64,000 bases of DNA from Candidatus Latescibacterota bacterium (GTDB lineage Bacteria; Latescibacterota; UBA2968; GCA-2709665), in contig OZ250150.1 in the NCBI GenBank assembly GCA_965237675.1, positions 4,672,001 through 4,736,000 of the forward strand, read 5' to 3'. The notes beneath the pieces were generated by a model, which saw nothing but the letters and a program-made list of their open reading frames with translations, searched no databases and was not told the origin of the DNA. Made by a program: the position numbers and the translations under genes. Positions 36,566 to 61,092 of the stretch are shown here, one piece after another. Within the stretch, counting starts at the first letter, position 1; each line of letters starts with the position of its first letter.

Positions 36566-36650
36566 AGGTAACATCCTAGGCACCCGCAGGCCGTGTAGGC
36601 GTTTGCGCATCGAGGCGAAAGCCCCGTAGCCGTGGGTGCTGGTGTTACCT
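36566..36650 (-). other. attC-like site (intact)
   Basis: AGGTAAC/GTTACCT perfect R pairing; gcaccc/gggtgc stem. Confidence 0.85.
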
Positions 36651-39156: not shown

Positions 39157-39243
39157 CGCTAACGTCCGCCGGTTTGCGAACCCCGAGCCTGGGGAGAGGT
39201 TGCCGAAGGCCAAGGCGCAACAGCGCAAACCGCGCTGTCATCC
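39157..39243 (-). other. attC-like site
   Basis: CGCTAAC..cggtttgcg...cgcaaaccg..GTCATCC. Confidence 0.78.
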
Positions 39244-42055: not shown

Positions 42056-42145
42056 GGATAACGTTCTGGCCACTTACGAACCCGCGCAGCGGGTTGCCAA
42101 TGGCCGAAGGAGTGTAGCGACAGAAGCGCAGAGGCGGTGTTAAAT
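42056..42145 (-). other. attC-like site
   Basis: GGATAAC...aacccgc..gcgggtt...GTTAAAT; next ATG 3 nt after R'. Confidence 0.8.
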
Positions 42146-44395: not shown

Positions 44396-44540
44396 CTGCA
44401 ACGGTCTCGCCGGCCGCGAACCGGGCCGGCTGGCACGGCTCGTATCCCGGTGGTTTTGATGAAGCAGGCGCCGTTACTGCGATAGGCAGGCCAGGTATGG
44501 AGGCGCGATTGCGCGGGAGCCGCAGCCCGGCGTGTTAGCT
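44396..44540 (-). other. attC-like site (long)
   Basis: CTGCAAC...ggagccgcagcccggcgtGTTAGCT. Confidence 0.7.
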
Positions 44541-45664: not shown

Positions 45665-45731
45665 ACTGGTCTCCGATTCACGCTTTGCACGCAATGACAA
45701 AGAGGAAGAGAATTTCTTCGCGGCAATTCTC

Positions 45732-45840
45732 AGCCAATGTCTCACCTGTTGCCGAACTCGCGAAGCGAGTTGGCGAAGGCCAAGGCGCCCTTCGGCAGGC
45801 TCAGGGCCGCAGCGGGAACGAGGTGCCAAACGACGTGGGA
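45732..45840 (-). other. attC-like site with REP-like insert (degenerate)
   Basis: aactcgcgaagcgagtt hairpin; cccttcggcaggctcaggg. Confidence 0.65.
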
Positions 45841-46804: not shown

Positions 46805-46898
46805 TTTTAACGTTTTCACCATTTACGACCCCGTGCATGCGGGGTGCGCGCAAGCGCCAGCCACCGTATGCCGCTCAGCGCAAATGGACGTGATATAT
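46805..46898 (-). other. attC-like site
   Basis: TTTTAAC..ccattt.cg...cgcaaatgg..GATATAT. Confidence 0.72.
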
Positions 46899-47880: not shown

Positions 47881-47966
47881 ATATATCGTCCTCGCGGGCT
47901 GCTAACCTGCGTGAGCAGGATTGGCGAAGTGGCGAAATCCTCGAGCCACAGCCCGTCGTGTTACAC
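47881..47966 (-). other. attC-like site
   Basis: cgggctg...cagcccg..GTTACAC. Confidence 0.72.
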
Positions 47967-48099: not shown

Positions 48100-48843
48100 C
48101 TATCGAATCTTGCAGGTGACCACTTGCTTGCTCGCGTTACTGGAGAATGCCGCGCCGTCGAAGTTCCCAACTCGGGATTCAATGAGAAATCCATTGTAGT
48201 GAAGTAGAGCTTCAAGCTCGGCGGGGAACAGCATTCTTAATCGCAACTCATGCCGAGAGACCTCTTGGTCGGCTTCGTCGAGAATCCGGTACGTGCCTGC
48301 ACTTACCTGAAGCGCACGGTCGTACCGCCCCTGTAATTCAATGCGGAGCCGATAACCTGTTCGTGGATCTGAGATGGTCTTGACCGGGGACCACCTGTCA
48401 GGATCGAGACTGTGCCATGACAGGCTCGGGTTGAACACATCAAACGCGAAACATCCGCCTTCCGCCAGAGACTCCCGCACGCACCCAAGCGCGCGCTCCA
48501 TGTCATCGCGGGTGTGCAGATGGAGGAGCGAGTTGTTGGCTACGAAAATGAGCCTCTGTGGTATGGGCGGCCGATATGTACGGAAGTCGTCTTCAACCCA
48601 GGCAATTGTCAGACCTTCCTCCGCAGCCTTCTTCTTTGCCGTTTCGAGCATCGAACGTGACAGGTCCACAGCGGTTACCGAAAACCCGTGCTTCGCTAGC
48701 GGTATCGCAATCCGACCGGTGCCCGCGCCAAGTTCGAGAACAGGTCCAGGGTGCTGCGCAGCAAGAGCCAAGTAGAACTCGATACCGTCATCGTGACCAA
48801 ACAAGGCGTCGTAGAGGAAACCGTCGTCGTAGATCGTAGACAC
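48100..48843 (-). CDS. Class I SAM-dependent methyltransferase
   Basis: VLELGAGTGRI. Confidence 0.9.
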   Translation of the reverse strand: MSTIYDDGFLYDALFGHDDGIEFYLALAAQHPGPVLELGAGTGRIAIPLAKHGFSVTAVDLSRSMLETAKKKAAEEGLTIAWVEDDFRTYRPPIPQRLIFVANNSLLHLHTRDDMERALGCVRESLAEGGCFAFDVFNPSLSWHSLDPDRWSPVKTISDPRTGYRLRIELQGRYDRALQVSAGTYRILDEADQEVSRHELRLRMLFPAELEALLHYNGFLIESRVGNFDGAAFSSNASKQVVTCKIR

Positions 48844-48944
48844 GCTGACACCTCGTTGGAAGGGACTTGCTTTGGATAGGTTGGCTGCTGGTTTTGTGCA
48901 CGATTCTCCGAGGTTGGGTGGTTGGGCAATCCATCGCTACTTGC

Positions 48945-49014
48945 GTGCAACATTCTCGCCTTGCGCGAACTGTCGCAGGCCGTCAGATCTTAACCGCAAG
49001 CGGACGTGTTAGGC
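48945..49014 (-). other. attC-like site
   Basis: GTGCAAC..cttgcg...cgcaag..GTTAGGC. Confidence 0.78.
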
Positions 49015-49024
49015 GATTGCCGCA

Positions 49025-49498
49025 CTAACCGGTCCAGATATGCTCAAAGTTCTCGGTTTCATCTGGACGCTCAAACTGAGTCACGAAGGTTAAAAATGCA
49101 TCTTCGTTAATCCAAAGCGAATTCTCATCCTCGTTGGTGCGGCTCAGTACCCGAGCCTCTAAGACATCAATCGGCGCGTCCAGATAATAGAGCCTTGACT
49201 CCACGCCAATGTAGTCTACGGACTCCCTCATCGCGTCTCGATCCTTACGGCGCCAGAACCCGTAGTCAAAGATCACGTCATTTCCAAGCACGAGATTCCG
49301 TGAGGCGTTCTGCCAGATTAGATCCGCCACCTTGCGGTAATGGGTCTCGAACTCTTGTTTCGGCGGACACCGCCCGAAAAGATGAGCGAGCCACTCATCG
49401 TGCGAATACCGGACCGCCCGTTGCGTTTCTTCAAGTTCAATCGCAAACGTAGTCTTGCCAGCTCCAGGCAAGCCACAGAGTAGGTGAGCAGTCGTCAT
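49025..49498 (-). CDS. AAA_33 family P-loop kinase-like protein
   Basis: GLPGAGKT. Confidence 0.88.
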   Translation of the reverse strand: MTTAHLLCGLPGAGKTTFAIELEETQRAVRYSHDEWLAHLFGRCPPKQEFETHYRKVADLIWQNASRNLVLGNDVIFDYGFWRRKDRDAMRESVDYIGVESRLYYLDAPIDVLEARVLSRTNEDENSLWINEDAFLTFVTQFERPDETENFEHIWTG

Positions 49499-49512
49499 TC
49501 GATTCTGCCTTC

Positions 49513-49609
49513 GCCTAACGCTTCAGGGTTTGCGAACCCGGAGCGAAGCGAAGGGTTGCCCGATAGGGCCAAGCGGCGTATGCCGCACCGCGCAAGATCG
49601 GTGTTAACG
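49513..49609 (-). other. attC-like site
   Basis: GCCTAAC...GTTAACG, branched interior. Confidence 0.82.
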
Positions 49610-49621
49610 GAAGTACGATCA

Positions 49622-49834
49622 TCACAGAAGCTTACGAAATTCTTCAGTGGTTAATCCGGCATCCCTAACAATTCCTCCCATTGTAAAGGCATTCACAGGG
49701 TTGTTTCGTGGAACAGTCAGAATTCGTACTCCATCCGTCATAATGATATGCTTGCCCTGGCGTGCAATGCGAAACCCCGCTTTCTCAAAAGCTCGCACGG
49801 CATTCAAATGGCTGACACCTGGAATTTTTGGCAT
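49622..49834 (-). CDS. hicA: HicA toxin
   Basis: ARQGKHIIM..TMGGIVRDAGLT.EEF. Confidence 0.88.
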   Translation of the reverse strand: MPKIPGVSHLNAVRAFEKAGFRIARQGKHIIMTDGVRILTVPRNNPVNAFTMGGIVRDAGLTTEEFRKLL

Positions 49835-50124: not shown

Positions 50125-50206
50125 AGATATCGTTCTCGCCGTGCCCGAACCGCGAAAGTGGTTGCGCGAAGGGCGCAGCCCGTCGCCGGGCACGGTCGTG
50201 TTATGT
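50125..50206 (-). other. attC-like site
   Basis: ccgtgcccg/cgggcacgg stem, GTTATGT; near copy of 53433-53516. Confidence 0.8.
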
Positions 50207-52220: not shown

Positions 52221-52321
52221 GGTTAACGGTTCTTGGCTTTACGACGTGGGCCAGTCCCAAAGGCCCATGTGCCCGCAGGGCCGAGGGGCGGATGCCCCGA
52301 AGCGTAAAGCCGGTGTTAGCC
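52221..52321 (-). other. attC-like site (intact)
   Basis: GGTTAAC..ggctttacg...cgtaaagcc..GTTAGCC. Confidence 0.87.
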
Positions 52322-52400
52322 GTCGTTATTAATTCGTATCCGTTCATTGTCGGGGCCTTATGTATCAAAATGTAGCCGCTAACTCATTCAGGCAGACTTC

Positions 52401-53321
52401 TCATTCACCAAAAAACGGGTACGGCTCGCCGGCTTCCACCAGCCTTTGTACCAGACTCGAGTACTTCAACACCTCCGTCAGCCGGGTGCGCCAATGCGGG
52501 GCGTAGAAGCCGACGAATTCCTGGAAGAACGCTCGCGCATCCTCACTGACGCCATCGAAGTATTGCGGCAGCAAAAACCATGGCTGGTCACTGGCGTAGT
52601 TCAGCCCCCGCTGGCGCATCGTGAACTCTGCGGCGGCCCGTTTTTTTACCGAGATCATCAACGAGCGCCTGAGCTTGTCGGTGTGATAGCGGCCCCGATG
52701 AATGCACAACTGGGTAAACAGCACCGCGTCACCGGGTTCCTGGTGGAGACGAACGGCGCCAGGCATATCGTTCGAGCGGTTGTGGATCCCATCATCGGCG
52801 ACGCAGATCGCGTGCTCTTCGGGGGAGTAGTCACGCAGGTGAGACCCCGGCACCACTTCGAGATCGTCGGTAGGGACCAATGCGATTTGCATCTGCAACC
52901 CGGCTCCGGTCTCCGGTCTCCGGGATACGTCTGCTTCTGCACCGATCTTGTCCTTGTGCCAAAATCCGTCCTGGCTTTCTCCGGTCGGATTACAGTAGAG
53001 ACTGCTCAAGGCGAAGAGGAATTCTTCATCCAAGGCTGCGCTCAGCGATTCGACAACTTGGGGCGACCCCATGGCATTGAGCAGAAAGGCGAGATCGTCG
53101 GGGTGATCGCGGTGATATTCCGGGTCGTTCAGGTGCCTCATGTAATTGGCCTGGGGCCCCACCGGTGGATTGTCACAGCGAGGAGCGCGCCGCCACTGTT
53201 CCAGCACTCGCTCACAGATCTCGCGCAGCCGTTTTGTCGTCGCTGCGTCGAACAAACCGCGCACCACGGCGTAAGAGTGTTGGCGTAGCTGCCCAGGGCA
53301 GGGTTCAGTAGCAATACTCAT
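52401..53321 (-). CDS. Phytanoyl-CoA dioxygenase (PhyH) family
   Basis: WHKD, VVPGSH, PGDAVLF, HRG. Confidence 0.88.
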   Translation of the reverse strand: MSIATEPCPGQLRQHSYAVVRGLFDAATTKRLREICERVLEQWRRAPRCDNPPVGPQANYMRHLNDPEYHRDHPDDLAFLLNAMGSPQVVESLSAALDEEFLFALSSLYCNPTGESQDGFWHKDKIGAEADVSRRPETGAGLQMQIALVPTDDLEVVPGSHLRDYSPEEHAICVADDGIHNRSNDMPGAVRLHQEPGDAVLFTQLCIHRGRYHTDKLRRSLMISVKKRAAAEFTMRQRGLNYASDQPWFLLPQYFDGVSEDARAFFQEFVGFYAPHWRTRLTEVLKYSSLVQRLVEAGEPYPFFGE

Positions 53322-53432
53322 TATATCCTCTTGTGTTGCTGTAAGAATTGCGTCGCAATTGGACTGTAAAAGTGCGGACAGGCTGTCTCGTGCTGTCTAA
53401 CTACGTATGGAAATCAATGCTCTATTAATTGC

Positions 53433-53516
53433 GGCTAACGTTTTCGCCGTGCCCGAACCGCGAAGCGGTTGCGCGAAGGGCCGTATGGCCCGTAGCCGGG
53501 CACGGACGTGTTATGT
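53433..53516 (-). other. attC-like site (intact)
   Basis: GGCTAAC..ccgtgcccg...cgggcacgg..GTTATGT. Confidence 0.88.
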
Positions 53517-53635
53517 GTTGTGCCAGCCGGGGGGCGGGGGCGGCCTTGCCACGGATGGCAAGGCCGCTTTGTCGCTGAAACAGAATTTCCGCTAAATGAA
53601 TTATTCAGCGGAAATCTTGAAAGAAGAACGAGGGA

Positions 53636-53806
53636 TTATGTCTCCCGTTTCACCGATTCTTCTCTACTTTTCCGCACCAGCTTCTCAGGATGCTCTTTCT
53701 GGCGTCTTATGTAATACGCCACCAATTTCTCTGGGTCGTGATCACATTGCTCCGAAATCCTATGACGCACTTCACGAATCCTACGAATGGTCGGATCATC
53801 TTTCAT
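53636..53806 (-). CDS. 56-aa putative partner/antitoxin of the PIN toxin
   Basis: Manual translation MKDDPTIRRIREVRHRISEQCDHDPEKL...; overlaps the PIN stop. Confidence 0.7.
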   Translation of the reverse strand: MKDDPTIRRIREVRHRISEQCDHDPEKLVAYYIRRQKEHPEKLVRKSREESVKRET

Positions 53807-54281
53807 CTTCAATATCTCCTAGGAGTTCCAGCGGAGTCACCAACGTGGGCACATATAAGCCAAGAATAGTGTTGACTCGCTTGATGTGGGCAAACTTATT
53901 CGCGTTAGCCAGATGATTGCAATTCCATGTGAGCAAAAATTCACACTTATGATAAGAGGCTGTCGCAAGATGGAGTGCATCGCCCAGGGGATCATTAGGC
54001 ATCATCTGGTGTTGGATATATGCTTCTACAATCTCAGCGATTTCTCGTTCAATTGGCAGCAGTGGCAAAGGAGCAACCAGGGCCAATACTCGGTCCTTGT
54101 TAGGATACTCTCCTCCACTGAGTTCATCGATAACCGCTTCACTGGTGAAAATCTCATAACCCTCACGCCGTTCGTCCCACCACTGGCGTGTCCAAGTCCG
54201 CTTTGCAGCCATCTCGGGTTCTGTACGTGTTTCGTAATAGAAACTGGGAATAGATATCTCGATGTAGACCTTAGGAATCAT
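53796..54281 (-). CDS. PIN-domain (VapC-like) toxin
   Basis: VYIE.SIPS; DALHLA; LLTWNCNHLAN. Confidence 0.87.
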   Translation of the reverse strand: MIPKVYIEISIPSFYYETRTEPEMAAKRTWTRQWWDERREGYEIFTSEAVIDELSGGEYPNKDRVLALVAPLPLLPIEREIAEIVEAYIQHQMMPNDPLGDALHLATASYHKCEFLLTWNCNHLANANKFAHIKRVNTILGLYVPTLVTPLELLGDIEDER

Positions 54282-54471
54282 TATATATCATATTGTTTTT
54301 AATATGGTAAAGACGGTTCAATTCTGCTGCGATTGGTCACCTATAGACCTGCTATAAATCTACATATCTTAATTAAGTTCTTCAAGCGAAATTTCCGCTA
54401 CTGAAGAACGTAGTGAGATTCTCTTGGGCGGCCAGGACGGCCGCCTGCTTTTGGAGGAAGGCTGGCATGGC

Positions 54472-54559
54472 TTATAACGTTCCCGCGGGCTGCGAACCTG
54501 CGCCAGCAGGTTGCTGCGGAGGCCCGAAAGGGCCGGAGCCGCAGCCCGACGTGTTAGCT
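54472..54559 (-). other. attC-like site (intact)
   Basis: TTATAAC..cgggctgcg...cgcagcccg..GTTAGCT. Confidence 0.88.
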
Positions 54560-55189: not shown

Positions 55190-55341
55190 AGATAACGTTC
55201 CCGGGCTATACGACGTTCCCCGGTCCGGCGAAGCCGGATTGGCGCGGCGCTTGCGTCTCTCAGCAAGCGACGTGACAAAGGGGAATGTGCCCGAAGGGCC
55301 GGAGGGAGCGAAGCGACCGGAGCGAATAGCCCGTGTTAGCA
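55190..55341 (-). other. attC-like site (long, intact)
   Basis: AGATAAC..cgggctat...atagcccg.GTTAGCA. Confidence 0.85.
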
Positions 55342-55939
55342 GAAGTCGCATCGGGGTGGCGCCCCTCTCGGTCCTGGAGATCGGGGCGTACATACAGCGT
55401 GCGACATAGGTTTGGTTCCTCTCATCTGATTGGGATGACCTGAGATCCGATTCGAAAAAATGGTTTAGCCCTAGGCAATACCGAAGAGATCACGACATCT
55501 CTCCAAAACCTTCACGTCAGGACCAGCAAGGGCAGTGGCCCCTCCAAGCGGCACGCGAGCAAAGTGATCCCGAACTTAGCGGCATGCCCTCTGGGTAGGG
55601 GCGCAGCCTTCGGCATAGTCAAGTCATTAGCAAGTGAGCTTTTGGACAAGACGAAGGTGCATTCCGCCGGATATTCAGTTTTCTCCGTCGCCTTTTCGCC
55701 ACTTCGATAGGTGTAAAAATCAAGCAACCGGTGTGACACAGGCCAATGTGTGGGTAGTGGTGTTGAGGTGGGTCCAGGAGCGCTTTATTTTGCGACGGCG
55801 CTCATGGCCCGACAATACAGATCTTCTACGTCGATGTCCGAGGCCGTCACTTCGGAGCACCACGCACGAAGTGTATGGGAGGCTCGATATGTTCGCTACG
55901 GCTCAAGTGATTCCTGATTGCGTTCCCGAATCCGCTTAG

Positions 55940-57627
55940 CCCGATTAATTCATGAATCGTCAGATAGAGCATTTTAAGGAAGCAGAAAGAGCTTCCGAGT
56001 GAGACAAGAAACGAAAGCGCATGGGCTGTGACGGATTTGGCGTGTTCAAGCCGTTTGGGCGGCGCCTGCTTTGCCTCGTGACGTCAGGTTGACCTCGATG
56101 CCCGTGTCAAGCGCACAGACTTCTCCATGACCTTTGGTGGTGGTCGATGCAAATGTGAAGGCGGGGTCAGCACGTCGATGGGTTATGGAACACCCGTTGC
56201 CAGATTATAGAGGATCTTGCCATAAAGGTGTTTGAGTGGAAACGCCGTTGGCAGATGGAACTTGATTTTAGTTTTCAACTCACAAACGCGCCCGGCGACT
56301 TTCAAGAGACGATTTTGCAGGGTATTGAACTGTGCGTTGGTCCACTTCGTGCCGCGCAATCCGATTGCAGCCAGGCTGTGCATCAGGACATAGGCGGCGC
56401 TGTGGAGAAAGAGACGGAAGTGATTGGCCTGGAAGGTGTGACAAGAGGTGCGATCGGAATGGAGAAAGGTCTTGTGATTTTTGATGAAGTTTTCCATCCT
56501 GCCGCGTGTGCAATAGGCGGTTTTGTAGATGAATGACGGTTGGGCGCGCTTCAGGTTGGTGACCACGAATCGGATATTGACACCTTGCGGTGTCACTTCC
56601 GCCTTGCAGACGATGCGTTGTGGACACGCCCAGGTGCCGGCCTGATAGGCCCAACAGCGATAAAGGCGCACGGTTTCTCCGGAATCGGCATACCGCGTTT
56701 TGGCCTGGTCTATCAAGGACTGTGCCTTCCGCAGGAGTTTGGCGTTGCCGTTCTGTCCGAGGACAAAATACACATCTTCTTCCTCACACAACACGTGCAC
56801 TTCCGGACACGAAAAATGCGCATCGCCACGTAACAGGATCTCCACGTCGGGCCAGGCTTTACGCAGGTAGGCGATCACCCGTTTGAGGATGGTGACGATC
56901 TCTTTACCCGCAGGCCGCCTGCCAGGACGCAAGACCGTCGTGATCAACTTGCCGGTTTGGCCTTCATAGATATGCAGGGGCTGGTAGCAATAGCCATTGA
57001 AATACGCATTGAACAACGACAACTGTTGAGACCCATGCACCTTGTCTTCGGTGTCATCGATGTCCAACAGAATGGCTTCCGGCGGTTCCTCATACGAGGC
57101 GACAAACACATCCGCAAAGGCCTTGGCGATCCGATACAAATCGGTTCTGCTGATGCGGTTCTCGAACCGACTCATCGTGGGCTGACTGGCCAGGTCCGCG
57201 CCAGACAACGGCAACCGATCACAGGCCGCCTTGAAGCCGGGGTCCTCGCGTAACGTCTTGCAATCATTCGCATCCTCATACCCACAGGCCATCTGAAAGA
57301 CACGTTGTTTGATCAGGTCCATCATCGAATGATGTACGTAACTTTGATGTCGATGATCGGTGAGCGCCGCAACCATCCGATGCAAAATGCCGACATTGGC
57401 CTCGACCTCACGAAGCAGCATCACCCCGACGTCGGTCGTCAGCACGCCCCCGTCGAACGTGGCTTCTACCTGCCTACCAGAAAGACTTGCGAAAGACAAC
57501 CTGTGATGTTTATCTTGAACTCCCACGGTAGTTTCCTCCTGTTTCATTGTTATTAGGTTATTTGCGTAACCATAATATAATACAATGACTTGGGTATGGA
57601 AACTACCTTTTTTGTGAATTATTCAGG
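55940..57627 (-). mobile_element. IS1380-family element, intact copy 2 (1688 bp)
   Basis: TIRs as copy 1; 4-bp TSD TTAG. Confidence 0.93.
56183..57547 (-). CDS. IS1380 family transposase
   Basis: FDGG..T.D.G, GYEDANDC, LASQPTMSR, LDID, LRGD, RG.MENFIK. Confidence 0.93.
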   Translation of the reverse strand: MKQEETTVGVQDKHHRLSFASLSGRQVEATFDGGVLTTDVGVMLLREVEANVGILHRMVAALTDHRHQSYVHHSMMDLIKQRVFQMACGYEDANDCKTLREDPGFKAACDRLPLSGADLASQPTMSRFENRISRTDLYRIAKAFADVFVASYEEPPEAILLDIDDTEDKVHGSQQLSLFNAYFNGYCYQPLHIYEGQTGKLITTVLRPGRRPAGKEIVTILKRVIAYLRKAWPDVEILLRGDAHFSCPEVHVLCEEEDVYFVLGQNGNAKLLRKAQSLIDQAKTRYADSGETVRLYRCWAYQAGTWACPQRIVCKAEVTPQGVNIRFVVTNLKRAQPSFIYKTAYCTRGRMENFIKNHKTFLHSDRTSCHTFQANHFRLFLHSAAYVLMHSLAAIGLRGTKWTNAQFNTLQNRLLKVAGRVCELKTKIKFHLPTAFPLKHLYGKILYNLATGVP

Positions 57628-59588: not shown

Positions 59589-59781
59589 TCTCGCCTCCCT
59601 TGTTTTCGGTCAATCGAATGGTTGATAATTATCTCGAGCTTTGGATTTAGGGAAGATCTGACTCGGGATTTCTCCGCTGTCGCATAAATCCAAGTATAGG
59701 AACGAGTGTTGATGGTGGGGAGGGTGGGGCTATTTTTGCACGCAATCACGGTTCTTCTGGGGGTGGTGGGGGCGATTTCTG

Positions 59782-59853
59782 CTAACTACGGTATTACCGA
59801 ACAGTTACGGTAATGCGTACCTGATCCGAAGATCTGCGAACGTTCGGGAACAT
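59782..59853 (-). other. 72-bp attI-like double-dyad site, copy A, 60 bp downstream of the recombinase stop
   Basis: gtattaccg-N8-cggtaatgc and cgaacgttcg dyads; ends GTTAG on the - strand. Confidence 0.7.
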
Positions 59854-59913
59854 TCCACGCTGAAGCTTGTAGCCCGAACATGTTCAGGAATGCTTCCTAT
59901 GGTGGCATCGTCT

Positions 59914-60174
59914 CTAATCAAAAACTGCCTCCCTTTCTTCCATCAATGCATCCAGCGGGCTCTGGATTTTCGCGAGATCCCGATTCGTCACCCGAGTATA
60001 GATCTGTGTGGTCTTTGGGCTTACGTGCCCGAGCAACACCTGGATATATCGCAGGTCCGTCCCGCGTTCAAGCAGGTGTGTCGCAAAGGAATGCCGTAGC
60101 GTCGGTATCCGCTGGACAATTTTCGCTTTCTCGCAAGCCCAGTCAAACGCGGTCTGTACCGACCTCTCCCTGTG
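59914..60174 (-). pseudogene. Tyrosine recombinase/integron-integrase-like C-terminal remnant
   Basis: Manual translation [73 protein letters not shown]. Confidence 0.92.
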
Positions 60175-61009: not shown

Positions 61010-61092
61010 AGTCAACGATCTCACGGGCCGTGAACCTGCGAAGCAGGTTGGGCGACGGGCGTAAACCCGAAGGCGGGGGCACGGTGTTAGAC
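61010..61092 (-). other. attC-like site
   Basis: AGTCAAC..aacctgcgaagcaggtt..GTTAGAC. Confidence 0.8.

Follow-up and report, generated by a model that had tools for sequence, protein, structure and literature searches.

We found that a 64,000-nucleotide stretch of the genome of a Candidatus Latescibacterota bacterium (contig OZ250150.1, positions 4,672,001 to 4,736,000, from here on the window) lies in an integron-type cassette array of about 145 kb, the recombination sites of which are a structural variant of the attC sites of integrons. Comparison of sequences leads us to favor, by a modest degree, the view that this array and its relatives were built and shuffled not by a canonical integron integrase (IntI) but by rec, an IntI-like tyrosine recombinase that does not have the IntI-specific insert. 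Integron integrases have been defined by that extra domain, and the recognition of attC sites has been explained by its holding two or three flipped-out bases.

The two palindromes at positions 53433-53516 (site 1) and 54472-54559 (site 2) of the window are shown to be attC-type recombination sites bounding one gene cassette. Their letters are those quoted in an earlier, sequence-only reading of this DNA, which had also given correctly the stems at 52221 and 39157 and had proposed building a dedicated model of the sites. An alignment of 15 sites made with MAFFT gave no structure in RNAalifold, the stems being misaligned, and an alignment of nine sites of equal spacing was used instead to build a covariance model, R1. 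With filters off, R1 found 30 matches at E ≤ 1 in the window plus the 34 kb to its right (98 kb), 30/30 on the + strand and 22 of them inside the window; sites 1 and 2, both on the + strand, score 90.9 bits (E = 9.5e-24) and 89.5 bits. Over the whole genome (150 of 2219 candidates scored) all 28 matches are also on the + strand, and the main cluster extends from C1:4608796 to C1:4753065, a chromosomal array of some 145 kb. The intervals between sites mostly hold one open reading frame (ORF) each, on the - strand, with families such as PIN, methyltransferases, NUDIX, HAD, APH-like, SET, PhyH and a nitrilase-like protein, and the array is interrupted by insertion sequence (IS) transposases. No match to Rfam was obtained in the window at gathering scores; the attC model of IntegronFinder is not part of that database.

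Site 1 consists, on the + strand, of the R′ box (53433-53439), a 7-nt spacer, a 9-bp arm (53447-53455), a 41-nt center (53456-53496), the opposite 9-bp arm (53497-53505), a 4-nt spacer and the R″ box (53510-53516). Site 2 has the same plan around a different, compensated stem, with a 45-nt center, a 7-nt box ending in AAC and a box starting with GTTA. The perfect stem and the unequal spacers described in the sequence-only reading are there, but two covarying pairs between the spacers had been overlooked. Across 49 distinct sites (55 matches, drawn from the present genome and nine relatives), the final two bases of the 7-nt 5′ spacer are paired to the central two of the 4-nt 3′ spacer (53445-53446 with 53507-53508 in site 1). 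This 2-bp extension is CG/CG in 31/49 sites, with the compensated forms GC/GC, GG/CC, TC/GA (twice), AG/CT and CC/GG also found; the helix is 87.5% paired, and double changes occur at both pairs, in five sequences each. The covariation claimed for the 9-bp stem is borne out: 91.5% of cells are paired in the nine seed sites (26-49% with the partners slid), with 6/9 pairs compensated, and 93.1% in the 49 sites (29-46% slid), with 8/9 pairs compensated.

Between the 2-bp helix and the 9-bp stem, 43/49 sites have a single bulged base on the 3′ arm (T in 19, A in 17, C in 4 and G in 3; A 53506 in site 1), which is absent from the other six; no second bulge was found within the 9-bp stem among the 49 sites. 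The first base of the 5′ spacer is G in 46/49 (53440 in site 1) and stands opposite an invariant T (53509), forming a G·T pair. The sole unpaired stretch of the spacer is made of four pyrimidine-rich bases on the AAC arm (the bulge 53441-53444 in site 1), the spacer being 5 nt on one arm and 1 nt on the other. The outer R helix (TAAC/GTTA) is 95.5% paired, and the purine/pyrimidine pattern of the single boxes is loose. The center starts with AAC in 42/49 sites, ends with AGC in 36/49 and is 27-101 nt long. Folds computed with DNA parameters show the two internal hairpins that had been read from the letters, set on a three-way junction in both sites 1 and 2; the minimum-energy fold of site 2 contains, in order, the R helix, the 4-nt bulge, 2 bp, a 1-nt bulge, 9 bp and the two hairpins, and several other sites fold likewise. 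In its anatomy, this attC variant is marked by a bulge on one side only, an extrahelical base that is single and variable, and a three-way junction that is conserved.

Much is shared with canonical attC sites such as VCR2/1 (VCR, Vibrio cholerae repeat) and attCaadA7: RYYYAAC/GTTRRRY boxes with an invariant AAC/GTT, a G after AAC (conserved in attC; Bouvier et al. 2009, PMC2727003), a folded bottom strand that is steadier than the top strand, an extrahelical base opposite the AAC arm, a terminal structure that varies and can be branched, a location 3′ of the cassette ORF and a crossover at the R′ box. The differences are in the spacer, which has 5 nt per arm in VCR2/1 (PMC2727003) and 5 nt vs 1 nt here, hence the 4-nt one-sided bulge; in the extrahelical bases, which in attC lie on the arm opposite the bottom-strand AAC and number two or three, the first a conserved G (PMC2727003, PMC5027507), whereas our sites have one, mostly T or A; and in the center, with its conserved AAC start, AGC end and three-way junction. 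A branched apex, which the sequence-only reading considered atypical, is not a difference in itself, since PMC2727003 describes attC terminal structures from 3 nt up to complex branched ones, with VCR sites among the branched. The same reading placed the extra bases on the R′ side; the unpaired spacer is indeed one-sided, on the arm of the cleaved AAC, but the canonical arm also has its extrahelical base in the 43 sites counted above. An attC model for Planctomycetes was built by Ghaly et al. 2021 (PMC8352920), and sites of the present kind may already have been used as "attC" without this anatomy being described.

The polarity of the sites looks canonical, with the + strand of the window as the bottom strand and the ORFs on the top strand. 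Both strands of 18 sites were folded with DNA parameters, a check that had been proposed along with the dedicated model, and the + strand is steadier than its complement in 16 (mean, -23.5 vs -21.0 kcal/mol; site 1, -26.9 vs -25.3 kcal/mol; site 2, -30.4 vs -27.3 kcal/mol). In attC sites of mobile integrons, the bottom strand is steadier by a mean of 2.12 kcal/mol (Nivina et al. 2016, PMC5027507). The suggestion that strand choice may differ in these sites is not supported, the variable AAC box, the bulged base opposite it, the steadier fold and a breakpoint at AAC all being features of the + strand.

This breakpoint was found by comparison with a relative, G012, in which the flank that precedes the 44396 site of the present genome (G000) is fused at AAC with the 39157 site's body; in G012 these two cassettes are neighbors, in reversed order. 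It is the only junction that was looked at base by base. Within the window, the sites at 50125 and 53433 have the body and the right box in common and differ in the left box, and boxes match across a cassette (GTTAGCC at 52315-52321 and GGCTAAC at 53433-53439). In G000, G012, G008 and G010 the array is a mosaic made up of blocks with 83-99.9% identity, many of them about as long as a cassette, and the order of cassettes differs between species. Because of the G012/G000 breakpoint and this mosaicism of blocks, we conclude that exchange occurs at the 5′ AAC box of the + strand.

The best IntI-like match in this genome is rec, a 333-aa ORF on the same strand as the cassette genes (C1:4757838-4758836), located 4.6 kb past the last site. 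Among solved structures, the integrase VchIntIA is its nearest relative (PDB 2a3v; 151.8 bits in two stretches). As in IntI (VchIntIA, TIGR02249), the N-terminal and catalytic parts can be aligned, the ORF shows the catalytic motifs (R, H-x-x-R, H and Y), and the gene adjoins a site where cassettes join at G|TT. However, the IntI-specific region is absent from rec, since 27 residues (217-243) stand where IntI has 69 (171-239), a shortage of about 42. In IntI, this region is the helix by which the extrahelical bases are held. Full-length rec (P0001) differs further by an extra N-terminal part of about 100 aa. The whole protein scores 214 bits against the IntI model TIGR02249 (111.7 + 103.7 bits in two pieces; cut-off, 265) and 218.6 bits against the XerA model NF040815 (cut-off, 220), and the NCBI name of its family is "site-specific tyrosine recombinase/integron integrase." In a quick tree (in which one row, rec_G038, is a miscut ORF with a very long branch), the rec clade (support, 92) is much nearer to IntI than are the host Xer genes, the order of the IntI, rec and Xer groups being left open. 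The rec of this genome is N-terminally truncated, about 105 residues short, and matches only residues 106-373 of the 376-aa form; that of G012 is split in two frames and that of G008 has an internal deletion.

To see how rec and the sites are distributed, we used 151 genomes sampled evenly over the phylum, with 29 R1 candidates scored per genome. R1 sites are present in 56 of them, from three families (two orders) and a few others; rec at E ≤ 1e-50 is present in 25, of which 19 carry the sites (these genomes are related and not independent). In 14 loci from three families, rec is found about 0.7-4.6 kb from the cassette-entry end of an array. Eleven of them (G000, G012, G008, G015, G038, G049, G051, G017, G107, G093 and the metagenome locus L173, the only close relative among 19 loci from a metagenome scan with P0001) have rec co-directional with the cassettes, and R1 sites (filters off) begin 0.7-4.6 kb downstream of it in the expected orientation. 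In the other three, from another order (G102, G091 and G152), rec and the cassettes diverge, the layout of classical integrons. Treponema-type integrons have an inverted integrase gene and carry a full IntI. The co-directional layout here and in the ten other loci resembles theirs, the three divergent loci do not, and rec differs from their integrase in having no IntI-specific insert. Among the papers listed by full-text literature searches, none was seen to describe an integron that has at its head a recombinase devoid of the IntI-specific region.

Beside rec there is a conserved attI-like segment. In the co-directional loci, about 135 nt after the rec stop codon are conserved, and the homology stops exactly at G|TTA, from where the sequences differ, often with an ATG about 9 nt past the junction. 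At least nine different continuations follow it: two in G000 outside the window, one at window 59780-59786 (common to G003), and one each in G012, G008, G051, G015, G049 and G038. In the divergent loci it is the ~220 nt upstream of the rec start that are conserved (73-75% identity), and the homology again stops at G|TTA, followed by three unrelated first cassettes. The two layouts share a core ahead of the junction, made of an inverted repeat (AAC...GTTCGG) with 8-10 nt after it. In all, 12 or more different continuations were found after the G|TTA end of the conserved segment.

Two attI-like segments occur in tandem in G000 and G008 (L010:1-4600 and L161), one of them behind a rec fragment beside conserved backbone genes. 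Behind the second segment in G000, but behind the first in G008, comes a block that contains a 757-aa glycosidase-like ORF together with three cassettes, which gives the impression that the unit between the tandem segments had moved like a cassette.

Were rec the integrase of these arrays, its gene would sit at the cassette-entry end, co-directional with or divergent from the cassettes, and the attI-like segment ending in G|TTA would be the entry point. On the model of integrons, one would expect cleavage of the folded bottom strand at AA|C, its exchange with the attI-like core and resolution of the product through replication; the one-sided bulge together with the single extrahelical base would determine the polarity. 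The distinct recombinase foreseen by the sequence-only reading has thereby a candidate, in a genome where no IntI scores over the cut-off, although its role is still something that we infer, with a slight lean in its favor. Because the rec of this genome has lost about 105 N-terminal residues, the array here may be dormant or served in trans. We propose more tentatively that there is an integron family within one class, where it spans two orders and three families (a few sites occur in other classes), having an integrase without the IntI insert and an attC code in which a one-sided 4-nt bulge and a single variable base take the place of several extrahelical bases.

Several observations weigh against this role of rec. 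No rec at E ≤ 1e-50 was found in 37/56 genomes with sites, only 3/15 genomes of this genus have one, none of the three is intact, and no intact rec was seen among the species representatives of the genus. IntI itself is said, going by the title of a 2001 work by Messier and Roy in the reference list of PMC4792948, to need its additional domain. The rec family is very large (7769 proteins at E ≤ 1e-30, those of Clostridia and Dehalococcoidia among them) and extends over many phyla, the quick tree intersperses the array-head recs with family members from other phyla, and copies or fragments of rec are also found inside arrays (window 59779-60168, G008 and G016). In addition, Cury et al. 2016 judged recombinases that have no IntI-specific region and lie near attC not to be IntI (PMC4889954).

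A sister subclade of rec, moreover, is the cargo of a multicopy IS91-like element whose insertions fall at the TAAC of attC sites. The element, found in G020, is 2.5 kb long and codes for a 283-aa tyrosine recombinase, 45-51% identical to rec, and a 394-aa IS91-type transposase (L023:4154-6662 and five further copies in L024-L028). The copies are 94-99.7% identical, 6/6 abut the TAAC of an attC R′ box, and the junction in L025 coincides exactly with the box of a site found intact at L023:344-432. G017 has an element of this kind 370 bp after a true IntI. Because the family is so large and its sister subclade travels in this way, rec could be a passenger of mobile DNA. What separates the array-head recs from these IS91-family elements, in which the related recombinase lies beside a Y2-type transposase (G020 and G017), is that they stand alone beside the attI-like segment: a tblastn search with the G020 transposase gave no match in this genome, only the G017 loci, and no Y2 transposase adjoins rec. 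The reading of rec as IS91 cargo, which the G020 element suggests, was judged less likely than that of rec as the array integrase because of the divergent loci G102, G091 and G152. As a separate observation, the end of the G020 element itself folds like a small attC.

A possible history, although one that we doubt, is that the sites are ordinary lineage-specific attC made by a canonical IntI since lost or acting in trans, the array being an attC cluster that has no integron integrase (CALIN) and rec the passenger of mobile elements drawn to GTTA cores. As in the CALINs of Cury et al. 2016, there are many attC-type sites and no IntI nearby or elsewhere in the genome (no match to TIGR02249 over the cut-off), and CALINs without nearby intI pseudogenes are reported as common in that study (PMC4889954). 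The behavior of the G020 element at its six TAAC targets and the majority of array-bearing genomes without rec agree with such a history, and so does the presence of a true IntI (464.5 bits) in G017, which belongs to the same family as this genome. Besides, standard tools may detect such sites through the Planctomycetes model (PMC8352920) if the genome belongs to that phylum.

The CALIN concept has, nevertheless, no place for a specific non-IntI recombinase and an attI-like junction heading the arrays in 14 loci, and an IntI is rarely found where the sites are. It scores over the cut-off in 2/41 relatives and in 15/151 genomes of the survey, coinciding with the sites only in G093, G107 and G059 (3/56); in the two of these that were checked, G093 and G107, the IntI flanks contain no R1 sites. 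In 886 kb from 80 loci with an IntI related to that of G017, R1 matched nothing at E ≤ 0.01 (with default filters; R1 is lineage specific, and an absence of attC is not implied), and no clear arrays emerged when the IntI loci and the surroundings of the IntI genes of G107 and G093 were crudely scanned for attC-like palindromes. The passenger part of this explanation leaves unaccounted for why the same attI-like core lies at the 5′ end of rec in the three divergent loci and at its 3′ end in the co-directional ones, and why it always occupies the entry end; nor was any IS91-type transposase found in this genome by the tblastn search.

Xer enzymes integrate a folded single-stranded phage site (that of the CTX phage), and the host XerC/XerD-type recombinases might process the folded sites in the same manner. 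Two Xer-like genes are present in this genome (C1:1530648-1531451 and C1:5369063-5369896) and others in every genome searched, which would explain the arrays with neither IntI nor rec, but a long distance separates these genes from the arrays, the sites, which have the AAC/GTT cores of integrons, showed no dif-like arms, and nothing links the genes to the conserved G|TTA junction beside rec. We regard their involvement as improbable. It is hardly credible that the repeats are just intergenic palindromes of the repetitive extragenic palindromic (REP) or terminator kind, which G+C-rich hairpins between convergently packed ORFs could suggest; all sites have a single orientation and AAC/GTT boxes, neighboring boxes match across a cassette, as those at 52315-52321 and 53433-53439 do, and the G012/G000 breakpoint at the AAC box contradicts it.

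If rec is the integrase, it would represent a second solution for recombining folded single strands, and its arrays a concrete candidate origin for integrase-less attC clusters, many orphan CALINs being then arrays of this second kind of integron. The huge "tyrosine recombinase/integron integrase" family of other phyla might act on folded sites too, and the rules of strand choice would become directly testable with a minimal enzyme. If, on the contrary, a lost IntI made these arrays, the sites would be an ordinary lineage-specific type of attC.

The cassette body between sites 1 and 2 (53517-54471, 955 bp) codes on the - strand for a 161-aa PIN-domain protein (53796-54281; PF01850, 26.1 bits vs a cut-off of 23.6) and includes a 58-aa ORF without a family match (53636-53812). 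To its left, a cassette with a PhyH-like ORF (52322-53432) lies between site 1 and a + strand site with a 3-nt 3′ spacer (52221-52321, 15.1 bits with R1). The PhyH-like cassette and its site (52221-53432) are repeated with near identity about 27.5 kb away (L009:15743-16954), with the copy of the site beyond the window at L009:15743-15843. Other attC sites of the window, all on the + strand, are those at 50125-50206 (78.1 bits), a near copy of site 1 in another context; 46805-46898 (70.2 bits); 47881-47966 (69.9 bits); 48945-49014 (48.2 bits), with a short center; 42056-42145 (35 bits), with an imperfect stem; 36566-36650 (29.2 bits); 61010-61092 (24.1 bits); and a long site of 152 nt at 55190-55341 (15.1 bits; fold, -42.2 vs -32.2 kcal/mol). 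The two partners of the G012/G000 breakpoint are the left box of the site at 44396-44540 (24.8 bits) and the body of the site at 39157-39243 (27.1 bits), the latter with a GC/GC extension pair.

On the - strand, a C-terminal fragment of the IntI-like recombinase (59920-60168, 87% identity to rec residues 248-332) is followed by an attI-like segment (59779-59943), the homology of which to other copies stops at the G|TTA core at 59780-59786. Deep in the array, at 1968-2033, there is another copy of the attI-like segment, in degenerate form (77% identity over 66 nt), which suggests that the 145-kb region consists of several arrays joined head to tail. At 45700-45836, in or just before the annotated start of a 428-aa ORF, there is a degenerate attC-like center and 3′ part that R1 missed; the interval around it may hold two cassettes. 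A second, small cluster of five same-strand sites is located far from the main array (C1:1405618-1412291, L011), with no rec or IntI match nearby.

Contigs of public sequencing runs break at the sites; at the joints near boxes (45805>53437, 45805>61020 and 53442>59779), the sides are just 30-67 letters long and separated by unknown letters, and nothing is drawn from them. Contigs from RNA libraries contain the region but do not show transcription. A segment of 1.3 kb (48445-49769) is absent from G008 and from the contigs of two public runs, with seven letters common at the joint and ends that do not fall at attC boxes. The insertion sequence at 55936-57627, within a cassette, codes for a 454-aa DDE transposase (56183-57547, - strand; PF13701, 521 bits) and is specific to this assembly: position 55935 is joined directly to 57628 in G012, in G008 and in contigs of 4/4 public runs, with four letters common at the joint. 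Further copies of this insertion sequence lie at window-equivalent positions of about 64.6-65.9 kb and 81.2-82.6 kb.

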